Part shown: piece after piece, positions 53,357 to 64,000 of the stretch
Layout of the letters: each line of letters starts with the position of its first letter
Numbering within the stretch: position 1 is the stretch's first letter
Notes under the pieces: generated by a model
The model's input: the letters and a program-made list of their open reading frames with translations, nothing else
Databases searched by the model: none
Told to the model about the DNA's origin: nothing
Position numbers and translations under genes: made by a program
From: an uncultured delta proteobacterium
GTDB lineage: Bacteria; Desulfobacterota; Binatia; Binatales; Binataceae
Length of the DNA stretch: 64,000 bases
Assembly (NCBI GenBank): GCA_963842085.1
Contig: CAWJET010000001.1
Span: 2,912,001 to 2,976,000, forward strand
Direction: 5' to 3'

Positions 53357-54733
53357 ATGAAGCTCTCGACGCGACTGCTCGGCAAGTCCTACCGCTTCCG
53401 TTCCATCAAGGAACTGCTCGCACGCGCTAACGAAGCGCGCTCGGGCGATGAACTGGCTGGAATCGCGGCGCGCTCCGAGCAGGAACGCATCGCGGCCAAG
53501 GCGGTGCTCGCCGATCTCACGTTGAACGACCTGCGCGAGAACCCGGTCGTTGCCTACGATCGCGACGAGGTGACCCGCGTTATCGACGACGCGCTCGACC
53601 GCGACGCATTTGCCGCCGTGCGCAATCAAACGCTTGGCGAGTTTCGCGAATGGCTGCTCAACGACGCGACCACCGGCGACGCGCTCCTCGCGACCGGCCG
53701 CGGAATCACCGCCGAGATTGCCGCCGCGGTCGCCAAGCTGTGCACCAATCTCGACCTGATCGTGATCGCGTCGAAAATTCGTGTCGTCACCCACGCGCGC
53801 ACCACGCTTGGCCTTCCGGGGCGCCTCTCGACGCGCCTGCAGCCCAACCATCCGCGCGACGATCTCACCGGGATCGCGGCCGCAATCTACGAGGGCCTCG
53901 CCTACGCAACCGGCGACGCGCTCATCGGAATCAACCCATGCATCGACGAACCCGACAACATCCGCCGGCTGCTCGAACTCACCGCCGACATCATCGAGCG
54001 CACCGGAGTGCCGGCGCAGAACTGCGTGCTCGGCCACATAACGACGCAGATGCGCGCGCTCGAAGCCGGCGCGCCGATGGACATCATGTTCCAGAGCCTG
54101 GCCGGCACCGAGAAGGGCAACGCTGGTTTCGGCATCACGGTCGCGATGCTCGACGACGGCTATGCGATGATTCGCGAGACGGGCCGCCTGCGCTCAGCGA
54201 AACCGAACCTGATGTACTTCGAGACGGGGCAGGGCTCCGAGCTGTCGGCCGGCGCGCACGAGGGCGCCGACCAGGTCACCCTCGAAGCACGATGCTACGG
54301 TCTCGCGCGCCGCTACTCGCCGCTGCTGGTCAACACGGTGGTGGGATTCATCGGGCCTGAGTATCTGTACGACGCGAAGCAAATCACGCGCGCCGGCCTC
54401 GAGGATCACCTGATGGGCAAGCTGCTCGGCGTCCCGCACGGCGCCGACGCGTGCTACACCAATCACGCGCGCGCCGATCAGAATGACTGCGAGAATCTCG
54501 CCGTGCTGCTCGCCGCCGCGGGATGTAACTACTTTATGGGGGTGCCGATGGGCGACGACGTGATGCTCTCATACCAATCCACCAGCTATCACGACGCCGC
54601 CGCGCTGCGCGCCGTGCTCAAGCTGCGTCTCGCGCCCGAGTTCGAAGATTGGTGCGAGACTCGCGGAATCATCCGCGACGGCCGACTCACCGCACGCGCG
54701 GGCGACGCGCGAATCTTGATGGACCAACAATGA
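53357..54733 (+). CDS. eutB: Ethanolamine ammonia-lyase large subunit
   Basis: RSGDELAG, RLQPNHP, GDALIGINP, MYFETGQGS, NTVVGFIGPEYL, CYTNH. Confidence 0.96.
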   Translation: MKLSTRLLGKSYRFRSIKELLARANEARSGDELAGIAARSEQERIAAKAVLADLTLNDLRENPVVAYDRDEVTRVIDDALDRDAFAAVRNQTLGEFREWLLNDATTGDALLATGRGITAEIAAAVAKLCTNLDLIVIASKIRVVTHARTTLGLPGRLSTRLQPNHPRDDLTGIAAAIYEGLAYATGDALIGINPCIDEPDNIRRLLELTADIIERTGVPAQNCVLGHITTQMRALEAGAPMDIMFQSLAGTEKGNAGFGITVAMLDDGYAMIRETGRLRSAKPNLMYFETGQGSELSAGAHEGADQVTLEARCYGLARRYSPLLVNTVVGFIGPEYLYDAKQITRAGLEDHLMGKLLGVPHGADACYTNHARADQNDCENLAVLLAAAGCNYFMGVPMGDDVMLSYQSTSYHDAAALRAVLKLRLAPEFEDWCETRGIIRDGRLTARAGDARILMDQQ

Positions 54734-55497
54734 AAAAACCTGGCCCGGATTCCGATTTCGACGCGATGCGCAAATCTACGCCTGCGCGCCTTGGTCTTGG
54801 ACGCGCCGGTCCGCGCTACACTACGGCCGCGATGCTCTCATTGCGCGCGGATCACGCGCGCGCTGTCGATGCGGTCATGACACAGGTCGCGCAGGACTGG
54901 CCGCGGCGCAACAGCTTGCTCGAGGTTCACTCTCAGGCGCTCACGCGCGAGGACTACATCCGCCATCCCGAGCGCGGCCGGCGTCTCGACGCCGCCGATG
55001 CAAAGCGCGTCGCGCGGCTCAAGCTGCGTGGCCGCGGCAAATCGCCGATGCCGAGCGTATTGCTATGCATTGGCGACGGACTTTCATCGGCTGCCGTCGA
55101 AAAGAATGCGGCGCCGCTGCTCCGCGCGCTCACGCGGCTGCTCGCGCCGCGATACCGGCTCCTGAAGCCAATCTTCATTCGCAACGCGCGCGTCAGAATC
55201 GAGGACCATCTCGGCGAAATCCTGCGCCCCGACGTAGTATGCATGATCGTCGGCGAGCGTCCCGGCCTCGTCACCGCGGAGAGCTTGAGCGCCTACCTGA
55301 TTTACCGGCCCACGCTCAAATCGATCGAGCCCGACCGCACCGTCATTTCGAACATCCATCGCCGCGGCATTCCAATTGCGCAAGCCGCCCGCAAAATCGC
55401 AACGCTGCTCGAAGATGTTATCAAGTTTCAAGCCTCCGGCGCCCCCCTGGCCAGGAAAACTTCCGATTCCCTCCCACGTTCGTCGGGAGAGGGTTAG
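54730..55497 (+). CDS. eutC: Ethanolamine ammonia-lyase small subunit
   Basis: TPARLGLGRAG, DHARAVDAV, IGDGLSSAA, VGERPGL, DRTVISNI. Confidence 0.95.
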   Translation: MKKPGPDSDFDAMRKSTPARLGLGRAGPRYTTAAMLSLRADHARAVDAVMTQVAQDWPRRNSLLEVHSQALTREDYIRHPERGRRLDAADAKRVARLKLRGRGKSPMPSVLLCIGDGLSSAAVEKNAAPLLRALTRLLAPRYRLLKPIFIRNARVRIEDHLGEILRPDVVCMIVGERPGLVTAESLSAYLIYRPTLKSIEPDRTVISNIHRRGIPIAQAARKIATLLEDVIKFQASGAPLARKTSDSLPRSSGEG

Positions 55498-55589
55498 GGT
55501 GGGGGACCTCTTGCGGCGCGATTGCCCGATGCGCCGCAATCTCCCTGCGCTGGCGCCTGCTCATCCGAAAAACTACGCTGAAAACTGCC

Positions 55590-56003
55590 ATGTCCGATCG
55601 CGAATCAGCGCTCGCCGCCAACCGCGCCTTTTACGACGCCTTCGAAAGCCTCGACGCGGAAAAGATGGAAGCGGTCTGGCTTAAAGACCCGCGCATCATT
55701 TGCATCCATCCCGGATGGCGCAAACTTTCGGGATGGGGTCCGATCATGTCGAGCTGGGAGCGCATCCTCGACAACGTGTTCGAGATGAAGTTCGAGCTCG
55801 GCGAGATCGAAGTGATGATCAGCGGCGACCTGGCGATCGTCGTGGTCGAGGAAAACCTCACCCAGCGCGGCTACGACGGCACCCAGCGCTCGAACGTGCT
55901 CGCCACCAACGTCTTCGAGCGGGTCGGCACTGCATGGTTCATGGTGATGCATCATGGCTCGCCGGTGATCGCGCCGCCCGACGACGAGCCGCCGCTGCAA
56001 TAA
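55590..56003 (+). CDS. NTF2/SnoaL-like protein
   Basis: ANRAFYDAFE...CIHPGW..LSG...SWERI...ATNVFE...MVMHHGSP. Confidence 0.88.
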   Translation: MSDRESALAANRAFYDAFESLDAEKMEAVWLKDPRIICIHPGWRKLSGWGPIMSSWERILDNVFEMKFELGEIEVMISGDLAIVVVEENLTQRGYDGTQRSNVLATNVFERVGTAWFMVMHHGSPVIAPPDDEPPLQ

Positions 56004-56024: not shown

Positions 56025-56897
56025 ATGCTCAAGCGCGTTGACAGAATTCAGATTGGAGTCGCGGACCGCAATGCGGCCGAGCGGGTCGTCGCGGAAGTCT
56101 TCGGCGCGGAACTGATTCGCCGCGACAAGGCGGCGCCGCTGGCCGCCAGGCGAACTACGATGCAGGCGGGGACGAGCTTCGTCGAAATTCTCGAACCCGA
56201 TGGCGCCGGCGCGGTCCAGGATTTCGTCGCCAAATGGGGCAGCGGACTTTTCGGCGCGGGATTTTCGGTGGATGACCACGCCGCGGCCGCGCGTCATCTC
56301 GCGAAATGCGGCGTCAACTTCGAGCAATCCGCGGGACAACTGTATCTCGACGCTGCCGCAACGTTCGGGATGCGCACTGTCATCTCGCAGCATCACGAGC
56401 GCGCGCCCGTCGGCGCGATCGAGTGGGCCTACGAAGTCACCAACGTCGTTGGCGATTGGCGGGCGGCGTCGGAGCGCTATGCGCGCATCTTCGGTCTCGA
56501 CCCGGCGAAGTTCAGTCCAATCGAGAGCAAGCAGTTCGGCTACACCGGCACGCTCACGCTGTTCGAGCCTCCCGCGCGGCTGGACCGAATCGAGATCGCG
56601 CAAATCACGGAGCCCAGCCTTGCGATGGGCCGCTTCCACCAGCGCCGCGGCGACTCGCTGTACATGTTTTTCGTCGAGACCGACGACGTCGGCGCGCTCG
56701 AACAGCGCCTGCAGGCGCGCGGCGCGCGTTTCGCAGCGCAACGACGCGACGAGGCGGGACTGGCGGAGTTGTTCATCCATCCCTCGGCATTTCTCGGCGT
56801 GCTGGTCGGCGTCAGCCGCACCGAGCACGCCTGGCTGTGGTCCGGCGACCCCGAGCGCGCGAAGCGCGCCGCCAACGAGCGCGCGCTGAAAGTCTAG
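56025..56897 (+). CDS. Two-domain VOC/glyoxalase family protein
   Basis: MLKRVDRIQIGVAD, VEILEP...FVAKWGSGL, second module RIEIAQ...RFHQRRGDSLY, FIHP. Confidence 0.82.
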   Translation: MLKRVDRIQIGVADRNAAERVVAEVFGAELIRRDKAAPLAARRTTMQAGTSFVEILEPDGAGAVQDFVAKWGSGLFGAGFSVDDHAAAARHLAKCGVNFEQSAGQLYLDAAATFGMRTVISQHHERAPVGAIEWAYEVTNVVGDWRAASERYARIFGLDPAKFSPIESKQFGYTGTLTLFEPPARLDRIEIAQITEPSLAMGRFHQRRGDSLYMFFVETDDVGALEQRLQARGARFAAQRRDEAGLAELFIHPSAFLGVLVGVSRTEHAWLWSGDPERAKRAANERALKV

Positions 56898-56976: not shown

Positions 56977-58152
56977 TTACTTGGTCTCGCGCATTGCGCG
57001 CACCAGAATCGCCGCGAGCTCCGGGCGCGTGAATTCCGGCGGCGGCGCTTCCCCCGCGCGCAGCATCTCGCGGACTTTCGTGCCCGACAGTATCAAACGG
57101 TCCGCGTCGGTATGCGGGCAGGTCTTGAACGACGCCATCGCGTTGCATCGCTTGCAGTAAAAGGTGTTCTCGAACATCAGCGGCGTGATCCCGAGTTCCG
57201 CCGGCGCGAAGCGCTCGAAGATCTTCTGCGCGTCGTAGCTGCCGTAGTAACTGCCGACGCCGGCGTGGTCGCGCCCCACGATGAAATGCGTGCAGCCGTA
57301 GTTGCGCCGCGCGATGGCGTGCAGGATCGCCTCGCGCGGGCCGCCGTAGCGCATGTGCGCCGGGAACACGCCGATCATCGCGCGATTCTTCGGGTAGTAC
57401 AGGTCGAGCAGCACCTTGTAGGTCTCCATCCTGACCGCGGCGGGCACGTCGTCGCCCTTGGTCTCGCCGACCAGCGGATGGATCATCAGGCCGTCGCAGA
57501 TTTCCAGCGCCGCTTTCTGGATATACTCGTGCGCGCGATGGGTCGGGTTGCGGGTCTGGAAGGCGACGATCTTCTTCCAGCCACGCTCGCGGAACGCCGC
57601 GCGCGTCTGCCGCGGCTCGCGCGGAAATTCCAGGAACGTGCGCCCCGGTATCTCCTCGACCAGCGTGACCTTGCCCGCAATGCAGTACGGCGGCATCGAG
57701 GTGACGTTCTTCGCCCCCGGATGCGCATCCTCGGCAGTGCCGAACACGTTTTGCGCTTCTAGTTTGCGATCGACTTTGTAAATTTCCGCGAGCTTGAGAA
57801 TCGCCAGCCGCTTGCCGTCTTCGGTCGCCAGCGCGATCTCATTGCCCGTCTTCAGAGACTTCGCTGTCGCCTCATCGACGCCCAGCGTGATTGGAATCGA
57901 CCACGGTGCTCCCGACGCAAGGCGCATCTCGTCGCGCGAGCGTGTGTAATCGGCCTCGCCCATGAAGCCCGTCAGCGGCGAGAACGCGCCCGTCGCGAGC
58001 ATCTCGAGGTCGGCCAGGTCGCGCGCGTTGAGCGTGACGCTCGCGAGCTTCGCGGCATGCGCCGCCAGCGCAGCGCGCTCGGAGGCCGGCGCTTTCAGAT
58101 CGACCAGCTCGCCGCCGCCGTGCGCCCCGATTGCGTCGTCGCGCACGCTCAT
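56977..58152 (-). CDS. sat: Sulfate adenylyltransferase (Sat type)
   Basis: [57 protein letters not shown]. Confidence 0.96.
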
Positions 58153-58697
58153 CGCCGTCCTCCCCGGTTGATGTAGCTCAGCTCCTCGAGCCGCCCGATC
58201 AACTTGCCCAGGCTCTGGTCGACGGTTTCCACGCTGCTGTCGACGACCAGCTCGGGCTTCAGCGGCTCTTCGTACGGGTCCGACACGCCGGTGAAAGATT
58301 TGATCTCGCCGGCCAGCGCCTTCTTGTAGAGCCCCTTGACGTCGCGCTCGACGAGCTTGTCGATCGTGCAGCGCACGTACACTTCGAAGAAGCGGTCGTG
58401 CTTGCGGCGCACCTCGTCGCGAATCTCCCGGTAGGGCGAAATCGCCGCCGAAATCGCGATCACGCCGTTGCGCGACAGCAGATGGCACACGTAGCCGATC
58501 CGCCGGATGTTAATGTCGCGATCCTCCTTGGAAAAGCCGAGTCCCTTGGAAAGATTGGTGCGGACTTCGTCGCCGTCGAGGATTTCGACGCGATGCGCCC
58601 GACTGCGCAGTTCTTCGGCCGCCAGATTCGCAAGCGTGGATTTCCCCGCCCCGGACAGTCCCGTAAACCACAAGGTAAAGCCTTGATCCATCGGCAA
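58149..58697 (-). CDS. cysC: Adenylyl-sulfate kinase
   Basis: [46 protein letters not shown]. Confidence 0.96.
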
Positions 58698-58800
58698 AAA
58701 CTGATGCTCCTCAATAATAGATTACTTACTGAACTCTTCAAGTTACTTAATATTATTGGAGGAAACAAGGCTGCAACAAAGGACCCCTTCGCGAATTCTA

Positions 58801-58881
58801 AACCGGAACCGGCTTCGCTGGCCCGAAGCTGTCCGAGATCCTTGCGCTGCGCTCGCGATGCTCGCAGCGTTCAGGATGACA
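58801..58881 (-). repeat. Repeat family A, inverted copy; supplies the HAD stop codon
   Basis: Reverse complement reads TGTCATCCTGAACGCTGCGAGCATCGCGAGCGCAGCGCAAGGATCTCGGACAGCTTCGGGCCAGCGAAGCCGGTTCCGGTT. Confidence 0.85.
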
Positions 58882-59560
58882 AGCCAGCGGGCAGGTTCAG
58901 TTGAATCGCAAGCGCGGCCGGTGAGCCGAAGATTTCGGCGGCGCCCGCCGCCAACAGTCGATCCCGCGCGCTATCGGTAGGCGCGATTCCGTAAAACCTC
59001 ACGCCGCAACTTTGCGCGGCGCGAAGGTCGGCTTCGCTGTCGCCGACGAATGCGGCCTCCGATCGATCGATGGAAAATACTTCGAGCGCGCGAATCAGCA
59101 TGTCGGGCGCCGGCTTGAGTCCGAGCAGTGTGTCGCGCCCGACGATGGCATCGACGCATGGGTGCCCATTTCTGTCGAACCAGCGCGCGACCGTTCTCGA
59201 GGAGTTGGACGTCACGATCGCGACTGCGGCGCCGCTTTGTTTCAATGCCGCCAGTGTTTCGACTGCTCCTTCGAGCGGCTGTGCGCGATCGACTCCCGCA
59301 AGCTCGATCTTCTCGATTATCTCAGAAGCATGCCGCAGTCGTTCGATGACCTCAGCTCCGTTGGCTTGTGCGAGCATGAGGGTGCGGTAGGCATCGTAGA
59401 GCGGGAGGTTGCCGCGCGGGATTCGCGCGAACAGTTCGTCGGGCGCGCCGATCGAGCGCAGGTAGGGCTCGAGGATGAGCCGGCCGCCCGCCCAATCGAC
59501 CTCGGGCTCGAGCCGCGCGATCGTGTTGTCGAAGTCGAACATCCAGAGCTTGTACATCAC
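58871..59560 (-). CDS. HAD-family hydrolase/phosphatase
   Basis: FDFDNT motif I, VTSN, KPAPD, FVGDSEADL. Confidence 0.9.
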   Translation of the reverse strand: MMYKLWMFDFDNTIARLEPEVDWAGGRLILEPYLRSIGAPDELFARIPRGNLPLYDAYRTLMLAQANGAEVIERLRHASEIIEKIELAGVDRAQPLEGAVETLAALKQSGAAVAIVTSNSSRTVARWFDRNGHPCVDAIVGRDTLLGLKPAPDMLIRALEVFSIDRSEAAFVGDSEADLRAAQSCGVRFYGIAPTDSARDRLLAAGAAEIFGSPAALAIQLNLPAGLSS

Positions 59561-60159
59561 GGATCGACGCGAACCCTGGTCTCATAGCCGTCGAACTCGA
59601 TTGTCGCGCGCGACGGATTTTCCGCGTATCCGGCGAGCAGCTTGAATGCTTCCGCCGTCGCGAGCATCGCGATAAAATCCGCGGCCTCCGAACGCGTGCC
59701 GACCGATGCAGGCATCGACGCGTCGACGGTTCGCCCGCCCTGGGTTCGGGGGATGACGATAATTTTTCCCGGCGCGTCGAGACGCGCGATCACCAATGCT
59801 GGCACATCTCGATTGTTCGCGATCTCATGTGCAACCTTCCGAGCCGAATCACTTCCGACAATCACGAATGCCAAATTAATGCGTCCTCGTGGTTCATTCG
59901 CGACGGTGACGGATACGTCGGCATTCAGTGCGCGCGCTTGTGCGATCTTCTCGGCGAATCCGGCTTCGTTGCCGGCTACTCGAACGCCTATCGCTCCAAC
60001 TCCCGCACCGACCAGGTACGCGAGCGGCGCTTCGATATCGCGCGCGTCTCCCGCCAGCAGCATCCGTGCGGCGAGCAAGCGTTCCTGGCCGCGGCCGCCG
60101 ACGCGCGGCACGATGATTTGCCGGCTGTAGCGATCGATTTGCGCGTCAGTCAGGGTCAT
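59557..60159 (-). CDS. Degenerate ThiF/MoeB-like protein (keeps RYSRQ, lacks the ATP loop and all Cys)
   Basis: QIDRYSRQII...GGRGQERL, YLVGAGVG, LNADV, AEAFKLLAG; GxGxxG replaced by AGDARD; no SNLxRQ. Confidence 0.8.
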   Translation of the reverse strand: MTLTDAQIDRYSRQIIVPRVGGRGQERLLAARMLLAGDARDIEAPLAYLVGAGVGAIGVRVAGNEAGFAEKIAQARALNADVSVTVANEPRGRINLAFVIVGSDSARKVAHEIANNRDVPALVIARLDAPGKIIVIPRTQGGRTVDASMPASVGTRSEAADFIAMLATAEAFKLLAGYAENPSRATIEFDGYETRVRVDP

Positions 60160-60174
60160 CGCACACGCGCACGG

Positions 60175-60420
60175 TCACTCGATCACGTTCTTTTCGATTG
60201 GCTCGACGGTGACTCCGGTGCTGCGCAACCAGGTCAGCGCGCGTTCGATCTGATCCGAGCTGCCTTCGAATTCGACGGCGACGAGTCCCATCTCCTCGGA
60301 CACGCTCGCGCCCCGAATATTGAAAACGAGGTCGAACTTCTTCACCAGCTGGTAAAGGATCGGCTCCTTGATCAGCGTGCGCGGATAGCTCAGGTAGTAG
60401 CGTTCGTGGATACGTTCCAT
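60175..60420 (-). CDS. Stand-alone NIL-domain protein
   Basis: YPRTLIKEPILYQLVKKFDLVFNIRGASV...G....IERALTWLRSTGVTVEP. Confidence 0.85.
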   Translation of the reverse strand: MERIHERYYLSYPRTLIKEPILYQLVKKFDLVFNIRGASVSEEMGLVAVEFEGSSDQIERALTWLRSTGVTVEPIEKNVIE

Positions 60421-60427
60421 TTGCGGG

Positions 60428-61501
60428 TTACTTCTTCTTCCACTTGGCGATGACTTGTTGCAGGCGCTCGCGACGCCATTCCTGCCATCCGATCCACAAA
60501 TTCGTCGACAGATATTTGTCGCCGAAGTCGGCGAACACGGTGACTATCGTGCCTTCGCGAATTGAGCGCGCGACCCTGAGCGCTGCGATCATCGCGGCCC
60601 CCGACGATTGGCCGACCAGGATGCCTTCGGTCTGCCCGAGCGCGTACACCATCTCGTACGCTTCTTCGGTGCCGACCGGGATTTTGTCGTCGAGCTGTTT
60701 TTCGTGATAGATGCCGGGTACGATCGAGCTCGCCATGTGCTTGAGGCCCTCGAGCCCGTGCATCGCGTCGTCCGGCTCGACCGCAATCACTTTGAGCGCG
60801 CGGTTCTTCGCTTTGAGAAACCTGCCCGTGCCCATCACCGTGCCGCCGGTGCCGATCGCCGCAACGAAATGGGTCACCTGGCCGCGCGTCTGGCGCCAGA
60901 TTTCCGGGCCGGTGGTCTCGAAATGCGCAATCGAGTTGGCCTCGTTGTTGTACTGGTCGGGCTTGAAGTAGCGCCCGGGGTTGTCCTCGATAAGGCGGCG
61001 GCACATGACGATCGCGCCGTCGGAACCTTCCATCGGATCCGAGAAATGAATTTTTGCGCCGTAAGCCTCGACGATTTTCTTGCGCTCGCGGCTCACGTTC
61101 GACGGCATCACCAGCTCGACCGGGTAGCCGAGCGTCGCACCAAGCATCGCCAGCGCGATTCCGGTGTTGCCCGAGGTCGAATCCAGGATCACCTTGCCTG
61201 GTTTCAGCTTGCCTTCGTTGATTCCCACCTCGAGCATTTTCTTCGCCGGCCGATCCTTGACCGAGCCGCCGGGGTTGAAGCCCTCGAGCTTGGCGAAAAT
61301 CCGCACGCCCGCGGGGATCAACCCCGCCGTCAGCCGGGTGATCTCCAGCAGCGGAGTATTGCCGACGAGATCGAGCACGCTGTTCGCGCGCCCAACCGGG
61401 ACGATCTCGCGGAGCGGCGCGACACGGCTGCCCGCGCTGTCGCGAGCGCCGGCGTCAGCGTCCGCCGGCAATCGCGGGAACGATTGAGATGTCGTCGCCA
61501 T
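60428..61501 (-). CDS. cysM: PLP-dependent cysteine synthase family protein (CysM-like)
   Basis: VGNTPL, KLEGFNPGGSVKDR, TSGNTGIAL, DQYNN, GTGGT, GLEGLK, GQSSGA, KYLS. Confidence 0.88.
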   Translation of the reverse strand: MATTSQSFPRLPADADAGARDSAGSRVAPLREIVPVGRANSVLDLVGNTPLLEITRLTAGLIPAGVRIFAKLEGFNPGGSVKDRPAKKMLEVGINEGKLKPGKVILDSTSGNTGIALAMLGATLGYPVELVMPSNVSRERKKIVEAYGAKIHFSDPMEGSDGAIVMCRRLIEDNPGRYFKPDQYNNEANSIAHFETTGPEIWRQTRGQVTHFVAAIGTGGTVMGTGRFLKAKNRALKVIAVEPDDAMHGLEGLKHMASSIVPGIYHEKQLDDKIPVGTEEAYEMVYALGQTEGILVGQSSGAAMIAALRVARSIREGTIVTVFADFGDKYLSTNLWIGWQEWRRERLQQVIAKWKKK

Positions 61502-61733
61502 CCTTTACCTTGGAATTGATCGCATCGAGGAAGCGGACGTCGTCGCCGTTGAGATAAATGTTGACGAAGCGGCGGATGTCGCCTTTTTCATCGAGCAGCC
61601 GCTCGCGTATTCCCGGATGGCGCCGATCGAGGTCTTCGATCACCGCCTTGATCGAAGCGCCGTCGGCCGGAACTTCGTCGACACCCGCGGTGAACCTTCG
61701 AAGTGGAGTTGGAACTCTGACGCGTACTGCCAT
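61455..61733 (-). CDS. MoaD/ThiS/CysO-type ubiquitin-fold sulfur carrier ending GG-R
   Basis: VRVPTPLRRFT...RRFVNIYLNGDDVRFL...DGDDISIVPAIAGGR. Confidence 0.93.
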   Translation of the reverse strand: MAVRVRVPTPLRRFTAGVDEVPADGASIKAVIEDLDRRHPGIRERLLDEKGDIRRFVNIYLNGDDVRFLDAINSKVKDGDDISIVPAIAGGR

Positions 61734-61803
61734 GATTGGGGACTTGCCTCCTGATTGAATTGCTACACTTATGCCCGCCGCATAGTCCAAACAAGCGCCG
61801 CCG

Positions 61804-63072
61804 TTACGCCGCGCTGTCTGCGGTGCGTTTCCCATTGGTGAGCCGGTCGAACAACGCGTCGAAATCCTTCAGCCGCGCGTCGATGATCGACGGCTGCTCG
61901 ATCGCGTTGGCAACCGCCTCGAGCGTCTTGTAGCCGTTGCCGGTTATCGACACGACCACGGTTTCGTCGGCCTTGATGCGTCCCTGTTTGACCAGCTTGA
62001 GCGTGACCGCGAGCGTGGTGCCGCCGGCGGGCTCGGCGAAAATTCCCTCGGTGCGCGCGAGCAACTTGATCGCGTCGATGATCTCCGGGTCGGTGGCGAC
62101 GTCGCCCCATCCGCCGGAATCGCGCACCGCCTTGAGCACATAGAAGCCGTCGGCCGGATTTCCGATCGCGATCGATTTCGCGATCGTGTCGGGCTTCACC
62201 GGCGTTATCAGGTCAGTGCCCTTGTGCAGCGCGTGGATAACCGGCGCGGAGCCGGCCGCCTGCGCGGAATGAATCTTGAACTCGCCGCTCTTGATTAGCC
62301 CGACCTCCTTCAGCTCCTTAAATGCCTTCGCGACTTTCGGCAGAATCGTCCCGCCCGCGGTTGGCACCACGATATGGTCCGGCAGCCGCCAGCCGAGCTG
62401 CTCGGCGACTTCGAAGCCGAAAGTCTTTGCACCCTCGGTGTAGAACGGACGCAGGTTGATATTGACGAAGGCCCACCCGTACTTGTCCGCGATCTCGCTG
62501 CACAGCCGGTTGACGTCGTCGTAGTTGCCCCGAATCGTGATCACGCGCGCGCCGTAAATCGTCGAGCCGACGATTTTTCCCGACTCCACGCCTTCGGGCA
62601 TGAAGATGTAGCATTGCAGTCCCGCGCGCGCCGCGTGCGCCGCCACCGCCGTCGCCAGGTTGCCGGTCGACGCGCAGGATACGGTGGTGAAGCCGAACTC
62701 GCGCGCCTTGGTGATTGCCACCGACACGACGCGGTCCTTGTACGACAGGGTCGGATGGTTGACGGTGTCGTCCTTGACGTAGAGATGCTCGAGCCCGAGA
62801 TCCGCGCCCAGCCGCTTGCAATGCAGCAGTGGGGTGAAGCCGGAGTTGGGGCCGACGACCTCGTTCTCGTTGAAATCGACCGGCAGCAATTCGCGATAGC
62901 GCCACAGATTGTGCGGACGTCTCTCGATTATCGAGCGCGAGAGCGCCGCGCGAATCCGCGCGTAGTCGTAGGTGACCTCGAGCGGACCGAAGCACGTCTC
63001 GCAGACGTGGAGCGGGCTTATCGGATACTCCTGGCCGCATTCGCGACACTTCAAATTGGTGATGTAGCTCAT
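61804..63072 (-). CDS. thrC: Threonine synthase-like PLP enzyme (possible O-phosphohomoserine sulfhydrylase)
   Basis: CRECG...CETCFGPL zinc ribbon, HPTLSYKDR, CASTGNL, EGAKT, SIAIGNPADG, EGIFAEPAGG, ITGNGYKT. Confidence 0.85.
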   Translation of the reverse strand: MSYITNLKCRECGQEYPISPLHVCETCFGPLEVTYDYARIRAALSRSIIERRPHNLWRYRELLPVDFNENEVVGPNSGFTPLLHCKRLGADLGLEHLYVKDDTVNHPTLSYKDRVVSVAITKAREFGFTTVSCASTGNLATAVAAHAARAGLQCYIFMPEGVESGKIVGSTIYGARVITIRGNYDDVNRLCSEIADKYGWAFVNINLRPFYTEGAKTFGFEVAEQLGWRLPDHIVVPTAGGTILPKVAKAFKELKEVGLIKSGEFKIHSAQAAGSAPVIHALHKGTDLITPVKPDTIAKSIAIGNPADGFYVLKAVRDSGGWGDVATDPEIIDAIKLLARTEGIFAEPAGGTTLAVTLKLVKQGRIKADETVVVSITGNGYKTLEAVANAIEQPSIIDARLKDFDALFDRLTNGKRTADSAA

Positions 63073-63089
63073 CGTTTCCTCGATTCCTG

Positions 63090-63797
63090 TTACTTGCCCG
63101 GCGCTTGCGCCTCGCGACGGTCGGGCTTCCACGCGCCGCAGCCGCATCCACGGCGCGGACTAACCGCCGCGATTCGCACCCGGGCCGGGCCGGACGCGTC
63201 GTACGTGAGAATTTTTCCTGAGAGCAACGGTGTTTGCGCGCGCATCGCGCGCATCGCCTCGGACGCCTGTATCTCGCCAATCGCGCCCGCGACCGGCCCG
63301 GCGATCCCAGCCTCGCGGCAACTCTGGATTTCGTCCTCATCGGGCGCCGTCTCGAACACGCAGCGGATACACGCCGTCTCGCCCGGGATCACCGTCATCG
63401 CCTGCCCGGTCATCCCGACCACGCCGCCATAAACGAAGGGCGTCCGCGCCGCGATACACGTGTCGTTGATCAAAAGTTTCGCGGCCGGACTGTCCGTCGC
63501 GTCGATAACAAAGTCGTGTGCGGCGACCAGACGCGCCGCGTTGGACGCGTCGAGCGCAACCGCATGCCGCTTGACGTTGAGGTCAGGAAACCGCTCGGCG
63601 AGCCATCGTGCGGCAGCGTCGACCTTGGGCGTGCCGATATCGACGGGACGATAAATCACCTGGCGCGCGAGATTAGACAGCTCGACCGGGTCCGGGTCGA
63701 CCAGTGTCATCCCCCGAGCACCGGCGCGCCCGAGCGCCCACGATGCGGGGACGCCAAGTCCTCCCAAGCCAACGATCAGTATTCGTTCCGTTGCCAC
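63090..63797 (-). CDS. moeB: ThiF/MoeB adenylyltransferase (E1-like) lacking the N-terminal RYSRQ segment
   Basis: IVGLGGLG, DPDPVELSNLARQ, GTPK, DATD, CIRC, SCREAG, C-terminal CGC; an in-frame TGA lies 15 codons upstream of GTG 63797. Confidence 0.88.
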   Translation of the reverse strand: MATERILIVGLGGLGVPASWALGRAGARGMTLVDPDPVELSNLARQVIYRPVDIGTPKVDAAARWLAERFPDLNVKRHAVALDASNAARLVAAHDFVIDATDSPAAKLLINDTCIAARTPFVYGGVVGMTGQAMTVIPGETACIRCVFETAPDEDEIQSCREAGIAGPVAGAIGEIQASEAMRAMRAQTPLLSGKILTYDASGPARVRIAAVSPRRGCGCGAWKPDRREAQAPGK

Positions 63798-63905
63798 GTC
63801 AGTCGCGCCTCTCCCGTCTTGTCGAGAGCCGCAACGCCGTCAGTGCCTATGGGAAGCCGGTGAAAATCCTGCGATGGCGATAAGACGAGGGCTTAATACA
63901 CTCGC

Positions 63906-64000
63906 CTTATCTTCCAGGAGACTCTCGCGCGGAGAACCCCTGCAGGAGTTAGCACCAGCACCCATCACGGGCCGGTTGCTGCGGCATCAGCGGGCCAGTC
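63906..64000 (-). ncRNA. SAM-I riboswitch aptamer (5' end lies beyond the window)
   Basis: Minus strand reads GACTGGCCCGCTGATGCCGCAGCAACC...GGTGCTAACTCCTGCAG...CTGGAAGATAAG, the S-box consensus, upstream of a sulfur-metabolism operon. Confidence 0.92.

Follow-up and report, generated by a model that had tools for sequence, protein, structure and literature searches.

A predicted SAM-controlled sulfur-carrier operon with a MetM-like enzyme and a candidate two-gene E1 in Binataceae

We analysed a 64,000-nucleotide (nt) stretch of DNA from an uncultured delta proteobacterium of the family Binataceae (assembly GCA_963842085.1, contig CAWJET010000001.1, positions 2,912,001 to 2,976,000; here called the window, or G000:C1:2912001-2976000). 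The host genome comprises 4.93 Mb in two contigs and has a G+C content of 61%; proteins closely homologous to those of the window carry the label Candidatus Binataceae. Toward the end of the window lies a minus-strand operon that, in our view, is probably repressed by S-adenosylmethionine (SAM) and devoted to the synthesis of homocysteine, and probably also of cysteine, from the thiocarboxylate of a small sulfur-carrier protein. A first-pass annotation, made from the sequence alone, had described at this site a SAM-I riboswitch followed by moeB, a thrC-like gene, a gene for a ubiquitin-fold carrier, a cysM-like gene, a NIL gene, a moeB-like gene, a HAD gene, and cysC-sat. All of these elements were recovered on the minus strand in the order described.

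The thrC-like gene (61804..63072, minus strand) encodes a 422-amino-acid pyridoxal phosphate (PLP) enzyme that bears an N-terminal CxxC...CxxC zinc ribbon and matches the NCBIfam models NF006050 (328.5 bits; cut-off, 303) and TIGR00260 (288.6 bits). According to the first-pass annotation, a true threonine synthase (ThrC) gene would not be expected under SAM control, and a separate housekeeping copy might exist. Such a copy was indeed found on contig 2, within a housekeeping threonine operon (G000:C2:426757-431520; L015:4615-10520) that encodes an alanine transaminase, homoserine dehydrogenase (hom), ThrC, a TIGR02535 “proposed homoserine kinase,” and GlpX. The housekeeping ThrC reaches 181 bits with NF006050, shares 35% identity with the operon copy, and lacks about 52 residues that the latter carries at its N terminus. 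The TIGR02535 kinase is phosphoglycerate-mutase-like, and the genome thus appears to form O-phosphohomoserine by a kinase of a non-ThrB type.

To place the thrC-like gene, 1.84 billion representatives were searched and 185,579 species genomes were scanned, which gave 80 named loci (designated L) with 55 to 87% identity to the operon protein. These span Planctomycetota, Acidobacteriota, Nitrospirota, Cyanobacteriota, Thermodesulfobacteriota, Verrucomicrobiota, Chloroflexota, and other phyla. In a maximum-likelihood tree from a quick search (the careful search is unfinished, and a very long row, L059_b, lies at the root), the 80 MetM-like proteins form one clade, which a long branch (SH-aLRT, 100) sets apart from six canonical ThrC sequences, namely, the housekeeping protein of this genome and five second copies encoded within the same loci. 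Neighbouring genes were counted by tblastn with the proteins of this operon, and the counts are lower bounds, since many loci end at contig ends. A carrier gene accompanies the MetM-like gene in 68 of the 80 loci, a NIL gene in 27, an E1 gene (ThiF/MoeB-type adenylyltransferase) in 18, and a CysK/M homologue in 16, one of which (in L074) is in fact a second ThrC copy picked up by cross-matching. The gene sat was found in two loci, and HAD and cysC were found in none. Within the family, the MetM-like gene is present in 106 of 121 genomes with 79 to 96% identity (100 of 115 if six unpublished genomes are left aside).

The linkage to a carrier gene and to a SAM-I riboswitch across the clade matches the MetM route described in the accessible parts of two sources (PMC13759103 and PMC12172450), and we therefore assign the gene to this route. 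Cyanobacterial homologues, which are 55 to 58% identical to the operon protein, fall in a group for which the available text of PMC12172450 reports 51.6% identity to MetM, the protein compared there being a Microcystis homologue with a metO-like neighbour. Judged from genes and their linkage, the core of the operon very probably belongs to the MetM/MetO route to homocysteine. That the gene is instead a true second threonine synthase, placed under SAM control by chance, is very improbable. The protein does pass two NCBIfam models named for threonine synthase, and public annotations give it this name; however, the accessible part of GapMind 2026 states that MetM is frequently misannotated in just this way. 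Furthermore, the housekeeping thrC occupies its own hom-thrC-kinase operon, the two copies are 35% identical and lie in separate clades, and the association of the thrC-like gene with carrier genes and SAM riboswitches persists across phyla. The distinction drawn in the first-pass annotation therefore holds.

The SAM-I riboswitch aptamer (63904..64000, minus strand; RF00162) sits just outside the interval 56977..63797 to which the first-pass annotation had assigned the operon. The window truncates it at the 5' end, and the part inside scores 48.1 bits; complete to window-equivalent position 64022, it scores 89.8 bits (threshold, 44.4) over model positions 1 to 108. It is the sole SAM-I match in the whole genome. 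In the expression platform (63798-63903), a strong helix competes with the 3' strand of P1, and folding of this segment revealed neither a clear terminator nor a clear helix sequestering the Shine-Dalgarno sequence. An iterated nhmmer profile seeded with this riboswitch detected a SAM-I element upstream of the MetM-like gene, on the coding strand, in 23 of the 80 related loci. Thirteen of these elements were given to Rfam, and all 13 passed, with 61.9 to 97.8 bits against the threshold of 44.4. With the same profile, no element was found in the cyanobacterial or Nitrospirota loci among the 80.

The carrier gene (61455..61733, minus strand; 92 amino acids; Pfam ThiS, 55.1 bits) starts 70 nt downstream of the MetM-like gene, and its product ends in ...AIAGG-R. 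The best solved relatives, both matched over the full length, are 4n6e_B (85.4 bits) and Mycobacterium tuberculosis CysO (3dwg_C; 78.4 bits, E = 3.7e-21, with residues 2 to 91 of 92 aligned). The carrier is equally CysO-like and MetO-like. The genome has four other ThiS-family matches: a MoaD-MoaE fusion, a ThiS adjoining ThiG, a weak match in a 112-residue open reading frame (ORF) whose nearest flanking ORFs belong to no Pfam family, and a match at C1:1909716 beside a gene for a molybdenum hydroxylase subunit, an arrangement that was also seen directly in a congener (G117). Because of these contexts, we regard the operon carrier as the only CysO-type carrier of the genome.

Among the C termini of the 59 complete unfused carriers that were listed, 43 end in GG and 16 have one to eight extra residues; a single R after GG occurs here and in four other loci. 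In seven loci (L028, L029, L030, L045, L052, L061, and L075), the carrier frame runs past GG and a linker of 3 to 25 residues into a NIL domain, and in L057 (L057:10244-11299) it continues into an E1. These fusions imply cleavage after GG, as with ubiquitin precursors, and a peptidase is likewise needed for the carriers that have residues beyond GG. The genome encodes a single Prok-JAB (JAMM) protein (74.1 bits) on contig 2, beside a panE-like gene, with an intact HxH...S..D motif. The stand-alone NIL protein of the operon (60175..60420, minus strand; 81 amino acids; PF09383, 56.7 bits; cut-off, 24) is 84 to 99% identical across the family loci. NIL follows the carrier in its 27 loci among the 80, including the seven fusions behind the carrier GG, and never occurs without a carrier. 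Its nearest solved relative is the C-terminal domain of MetN, matched at an E value of only 0.21.

The second PLP enzyme of the operon, the 357-residue CysM-like protein (60428..61501, minus strand), is encoded by a gene that shares 47 nt with the carrier gene, an overlap that recurs in L020. It scores 366.5 bits with TIGR01138, below the cut-off of 394.2, and 343.6 bits with TIGR01136, and it shares 38 to 40% identity with the two cysK products of the genome. The protein represents a subfamily of its own (here, class A) that has no specific relation to the Rv1336-type CysM. Class A homologues with 51 to 65% identity lie within clusters of genes for MetM, carrier, NIL, JAMM, and E1 in L028, L030, L045, L052, and L087. 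A JAMM gene was detected in 12 of the 80 loci, all of which have a CysK/M homologue; loci without such a homologue gave no JAMM match. The JAMM gene is present in 12 of the 15 other loci with a genuine CysK/M homologue and is absent from this operon. The 12 loci are not independent, as five or six of them belong to Nitrospirota.

The first-pass annotation had proposed that cysteine and homocysteine are both made on one carrier. The homocysteine part of this proposal is sustained by the single CysO-type carrier and the MetM-like enzyme, whereas the use of the carrier by the CysM-like enzyme is suggested by association only. From the gene linkage we give an even chance that the CysM-like enzyme draws on the same carrier to make cysteine. 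Nearly as plausible is that the carrier serves the MetM-like enzyme alone. The CysM-like protein would then be a cysteine synthase of the ordinary kind, dependent on sulfide or thiosulfate, and its co-regulation would reflect the supply of cysteine and reduced sulfur to methionine synthesis. Its best family model is TIGR01138 (cysM), and among solved structures it matches the CysM proteins of Salmonella and Escherichia coli with 231 to 239 bits and an Entamoeba CysK with 239.6 bits, as against 212.4 bits for the mycobacterial CysM (3dki). As the protein is no nearer to mycobacterial CysM than to enterobacterial CysM or to CysK, it could use free sulfide. SAM riboswitches are also known to control sulfate-assimilation genes in Bacillus, which fits co-regulation of an ordinary enzyme. 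On the other hand, the genome already holds two standard cysK genes, the 47-nt overlap with the carrier gene recurs, the class A subfamily occurs within the MetM-carrier-NIL-JAMM-E1 clusters of at least five loci of other lineages, and JAMM genes are confined to loci with a CysK/M homologue (12 of 12).

The upstream enzymes of the Nitrospirota clusters (class B) proved to be ordinary CysK (380 bits to 2egu), which speaks against carrier use by the CysM-like protein. Separately, a locus labelled as a deltaproteobacterial metagenome-assembled genome (L028:9004-14032) has a MetM-like gene, a CysK-type gene, and a class A CysM-like gene around one carrier-NIL fusion; this cluster continues with a JAMM gene and a full-length E1 gene, and sat lies about 4 kb beyond. 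One of the standard cysK genes of the host genome (G000:C1:1039786-1040673; L118:4769-6073) encodes an N-terminal extension of about 120 residues, and its product is 59% identical to the CysK encoded upstream of E1 in the Nitrospirota MetM clusters.

The E1 of the operon (63090..63797, minus strand; 235 amino acids; Pfam ThiF, PF00899, 210.6 bits) matches positions 21 to 236 of the ThiF profile only. It has no rhodanese domain and lacks the N-terminal RYSRQ arginine-finger helix, and the ORF is already maximal, as an upstream stop codon bars any N-terminal extension. The Gly loop, DxD, NLxRQ, the catalytic Asp, and the CxxC...CxC zinc cysteines are all retained; in our alignment A3 the conserved residues are G10, G12, G13, G15, D34, D36, N42, R45, Q46, K58, and D102 together with the CxxC/CxC cysteines. 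In 20 of 20 E1 genes from 14 non-Binataceae loci, RY[SH]R occurs about 25 residues before the Gly loop, whereas the Gly-loop strand is the first element in all eight aligned Binataceae E1s (this one, those of five congeners, L020, and L153), which have no arginine-finger helix. The truncated E1 is 36 to 39% identical to the upstream E1 of the Nitrospirota clusters and 30 to 33% identical to the downstream one.

The moeB-like gene of the first-pass annotation (59557..60159, minus strand; 200 amino acids) encodes a degenerate ThiF, or pseudo-E1, which we call ThiFx. It reaches 20.6 bits with Pfam ThiF, below the cut-off of 28.1, and the match is limited to the first 60 or so residues; residues 3 to 62 alone align to Uba4, ThiF, or MoeB. 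Among 28 family sequences (alignment A2, from which row L131, of an unpublished genome, is omitted), Q7, Y11, S12, R13, Q14, I15, I16, and V17 are invariant; ThiFx thus retains the N-terminal RYSRQ helix that the E1 lacks. No Gly loop, DxD, or RQ motif is left (A2 and A3), and the Gly-loop region is variable. ThiFx lies directly behind NIL, the position occupied by a full E1 in other phyla. For ThiFx, 113 of 121 family genomes give a best match with an E value no higher than 3e-16, five match only weakly (E, about 1e-7 to 1e-6), and the other three do not match at all; when the six unpublished genomes are set aside, the first count becomes 108 of 115. In 29 family loci, which include L131, HAD comes next in 27, NIL precedes in 18, and E1 directly precedes in 5.

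A complex model of E1, ATP, and ThiFx scored 0.91 in three runs, against 0.00 for the best of three controls; this mark is reached by 116 of 157 solved complexes and by 2 of 215 mismatched pairs, a calibration whose conditions the model leaves, as it used our own alignments and ATP riding along. At least 95% of contacts are common to the runs, and the predicted local distance difference test (pLDDT) value of the partner is at least 86. In the model, ThiFx residues 6, 9 to 14, and 16 to 18 lie on E1 residues 40 to 52, which contain the NLxRQ ATP motif. In the accessible text of PMC13139853, the arginine finger acting in trans is Arg11 in ThiF and Arg14 in MoeB, and in yeast Tcd1-Tcd2, a ThiF-family heterodimer, the defective subunit gives the arginine finger. 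MoeB and ThiF are described as homodimers, and eukaryotic E1s as paired active and inactive adenylation domains, in the available part of PMC12355090. On the strength of the gene sequences and the model, we lean toward the reading that the Binataceae E1 is a two-gene enzyme formed by E1 and ThiFx.

Several observations weigh against this pairing. The high model score may echo the solved MoeB and ThiF homodimers; the modelling covered the heterodimer. According to the accessible part of PMC13139853, the arginine finger of MoeB and ThiF is catalytically non-essential and E. coli TcdA has none, so that its loss need not force a partner. In L020, a truncated E1 occurs with no ThiFx or HAD within 9 kb downstream. 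It is conceivable, although we hold it to be somewhat doubtful, that E1 is a homodimer without the helix and that ThiFx is a relic or has another role, for instance, with HAD and the sulfate-activating enzymes. The non-essential finger, the TcdA case, and L020 favour this alternative, as do the regular succession of ThiFx and HAD (27 of 29 loci), often with cysC-sat after them, and the conservation of ThiFx, which at 36 to 81% identity is far below that of MetM or NIL. However, ThiFx persists across the sampled genera as an open frame with an invariant N-terminal helix, in 113 of 121 family genomes, which is unlike a relic. Moreover, the losses in E1 and ThiFx are complementary, the two genes are adjacent in 5 of 29 loci, and the model (0.91 versus 0.00) places the ThiFx helix on the ATP motif of E1. 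A more far-reaching version of the two-gene E1, in which two ancestral E1 genes degenerated in a complementary manner into an obligate heterodimer that charges one carrier for both the homocysteine and the cysteine enzymes, with NIL as a carrier-bound regulator, strikes us as unlikely.

The HAD-IA family phosphatase (58871..59560, minus strand; 229 amino acids; PF13419, 81.6 bits) has an intact DxDxT motif, and the start of its gene overlaps the ThiFx stop by 4 nt. Among 25 NCBIfam models listed, all equivalog and hypothetical-equivalog models remain under their cut-offs, and only generic HAD-IA subfamily models pass; solved structures give only distant, phosphoglycolate-phosphatase-like matches of about 35 bits. 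HAD is a regular companion of ThiFx within the family and stands beside the MetM-like gene in 0 of the 80 loci of other lineages. A gap of 173 nt separates HAD from cysC (58149..58697, minus strand), which encodes a 182-residue adenylyl-sulfate kinase (NF002059, 266 bits; cut-off, 244). The start of sat (56977..58152, minus strand) overlaps the cysC stop by 4 nt; its product is a sulfate adenylyltransferase of 391 amino acids with PUA_2 and ATP-sulfurylase domains (NF003166, 537.8 bits; cut-off, 387).

In 5 of 11 genomes of the genus (G029, G048, G065, G112, and G117; 91 to 98% complete), the MetM-like gene was not found. All five have a contiguous and intact E1-ThiFx-HAD-cysC-sat array; their sole ThrC match is canonical (36 to 38% identity), and their best carrier match has 35 to 38% identity. 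In G117, this match adjoins the gene for a molybdenum hydroxylase subunit. In the two loci that were inspected over 18 kb (G029 and G117), neither the CysM-like gene nor NIL nor the riboswitch occurs. These five congeners indicate that E1, ThiFx, and HAD are not tied to MetM alone, and the three proteins may serve another carrier or belong with sulfate activation. The direct joint of E1 to ThiFx-HAD-cysC-sat, which corresponds to window 60162-63107, was noted in loci L121-L124, L127, L150, and L151. A DNA contig from a soil metagenome (one contig, depth 3) joins window position 60162 to 63107, which corresponds to the same deletion.

The genome also encodes the standard routes. Among metA, metX, metB, and metY, for which the first-pass annotation had proposed a search, metA was found adjoining metY, and two further PLP genes of the Cys/Met family are present. 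There are also cysE and the two cysK genes; a sulfite reductase gene adjoins a gene for 3'-phosphoadenylyl sulfate/adenylyl sulfate (PAPS/APS) reductase elsewhere on contig 1. Close to thiC, at a distance of about 25 kb from the operon, there is a rhodanese-ThiF gene. Since metA-metY, cysE, and two cysK are present, the operon would be a parallel SAM-controlled route rather than the sole one.

Besides the points raised above for the CysM-like enzyme and for E1, our reading of the operon as a carrier-dependent route has to be set against the following. Complete standard routes exist in the genome, and the MetM-like gene is missing from the five congeners. The JAMM gene is unlinked to the operon. 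The placement of cysC-sat on the same transcript as the upstream genes is putative only, given the 173-nt gap. Orthology to the characterised MetM/MetO of Streptomyces albulus is indirect, as it rests on the published description and not on direct sequence comparison, and the functions of all operon proteins are predicted. A scan of the locus for promoters and terminators gave counts at chance level, so that a promoter-like site before cysC carries no weight. Seven soil metagenome runs from two studies hold at least half of the words of the stretch. In one soil metatranscriptome, only contigs of relatives with 88 to 95% likeness were found, with no sign of transcription or of the transcript structure of this operon.

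Assuming that the operon acts as a carrier-dependent route, the following scheme can be proposed. Low SAM would open the SAM-I riboswitch and allow the operon to be expressed. The carrier would be made as a GG-R precursor, and its last residue would be removed, most likely by the sole JAMM peptidase of the genome. The operon E1 would then adenylate the C-terminal glycine of the carrier, which would be converted to a thiocarboxylate, with ThiFx supplying the arginine-finger helix and the other half of a ThiF-type dimer. Judged by its position, ThiFx may descend from the second E1 that other phyla encode behind NIL. The sulfur of the thiocarboxylate would come from assimilated sulfate by way of sat-cysC in this operon and of cysH and sulfite reductase encoded elsewhere. 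By family membership, the MetM-like enzyme would combine O-phosphohomoserine, provided by the hom-thrC-kinase operon, with the carrier thiocarboxylate to yield homocysteine; by association, the CysM-like enzyme might combine O-phosphoserine or O-acetylserine with the same thiocarboxylate to yield cysteine. NIL may be a stoichiometric carrier partner, possibly one that senses methionine. HAD is presumably a phosphatase, and a role as a pyrophosphatase, a 3'-phosphoadenosine 5'-phosphate (PAP) phosphatase, or a phospho-amino-acid phosphatase is a guess.

Downstream of sat, on the plus strand and unrelated to the operon, are eutC (54649-55497), which encodes the light chain of ethanolamine ammonia-lyase, an ORF (55065-56003) whose C-terminal part encodes a SnoaL-like protein, and, as the next gene after sat, a gene for a two-domain glyoxalase-family protein (56025-56897). 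Beyond the window end, upstream of the riboswitch and on the minus strand, lies asd (L019:1555-2562), which encodes aspartate-semialdehyde dehydrogenase; it follows genes for an alpha/beta hydrolase and a TrmJ-type methyltransferase as well as a small unknown ORF.

The MetM/MetO core as such is already published, as the accessible parts of the sources above attest. What appears, from gene content, to be particular to Binataceae is the pairing of a truncated E1 with a complementary pseudo-E1, together with the ThiFx-HAD-cysC-sat module. Within the PMC open subset and bioRxiv, the available texts describe no NIL partner and no CysM sharing a MetO carrier (the S1C and S1D Texts of GapMind 2026 lie outside this coverage), nor do they describe a pseudo-E1 in a bacterial sulfur-carrier pathway or a ThiFx-HAD-cysC-sat module. 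In every public annotation examined, the MetM-like gene is labelled “threonine synthase,” and correcting this label mends the reconstruction of methionine pathways for a widespread uncultured soil phylum. As the CysM-like gene is linked to this carrier too, a single thiocarboxylate carrier may be able to feed both sulfur amino acids; if so, the mycobacterial and Streptomyces paradigms would extend to Gram-negative lineages. NIL and HAD also stand as conserved parts. Within the ThiF family, the truncated E1 and the pseudo-E1 would show in compact form how duplicated genes degenerate and complement each other in nature, and they would be a simple system for studying the roles of the trans arginine-finger helix and of the second protomer. 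If the obligate heterodimer is true, the pair would be, on a small scale, a prokaryotic counterpart of the paired active and inactive adenylation domains of eukaryotic E1s.

The closest known system is the MetM/MetO thiocarboxylate route to homocysteine in Streptomyces albulus, which Hasebe et al. reportedly described in 2024 (Appl Environ Microbiol 90:e0124724). As set out in the accessible parts of GapMind 2026 (PMC13759103; bioRxiv 10.1101/2024.10.14.618325), that pathway consists of the carrier MetO, Mec for its maturation, MoeZ, and MetM; metM has a SAM riboswitch according to the available text of PMC12172450. As far as these texts go, the Binataceae operon shares with it a SAM riboswitch followed by neighbouring genes for a ThrC-homologous enzyme and a small GG carrier, a carrier whose additional C-terminal residue(s) must be cut off by a JAMM peptidase (Mec) and which, after activation by an E1, would become a thiocarboxylate, and a supply of O-phosphohomoserine from a separate threonine operon. 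In contrast to the S. albulus pathway as described there, the Binataceae operon has its own rhodanese-less E1 instead of relying on MoeZ, this E1 is without the arginine-finger helix and is paired with a pseudo-E1, and the JAMM gene is unlinked. Likewise, by comparison with the same partial descriptions, the CysM-like, NIL, HAD, and cysC-sat genes are added companions of the MetM-like gene in the Binataceae operon.

The cysteine route of M. tuberculosis consists of CysM, CysO, Mec, and MoeZ. The Binataceae operon resembles it in having a CysO-related carrier (78.4 bits) and a PLP enzyme of the CysK/M fold encoded beside the carrier, and in other phyla the cluster adds a JAMM peptidase and an E1. 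Unlike in M. tuberculosis, however, the CysM-like protein belongs to a separate subfamily, mec is not adjacent, the carrier gene is also flanked by a MetM-like gene, and the whole operon is predicted to be under SAM control.

A third relative is the protein-thiocarboxylate methionine pathway of Wolinella succinogenes (HcyS, HcyF, HcyD, and MetY), reportedly described by Krishnamoorthy and Begley in 2011. As is proposed for the Binataceae operon, a carrier delivers the sulfur of homocysteine in that pathway after trimming by a JAMM peptidase and activation by an E1; in both cases, the genes are clustered with sulfate-assimilation genes; unlike the Binataceae operon, it employs an O-acetylhomoserine sulfhydrylase (MetY) and not a ThrC paralogue. 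We know of no NIL protein or pseudo-E1 in the Wolinella pathway.

For the candidate two-gene E1, the nearest parallels are Tcd1-Tcd2 and the eukaryotic E1s, as far as described in the accessible parts of PMC13139853 and PMC12355090, respectively. The Binataceae pair differs from these in that it consists of small bacterial sulfur-carrier proteins, known from genes and a model, whose catalytic subunit physically lacks the helix; it would share with them the division of labour between one catalytic subunit and one defective subunit that donates the helix.

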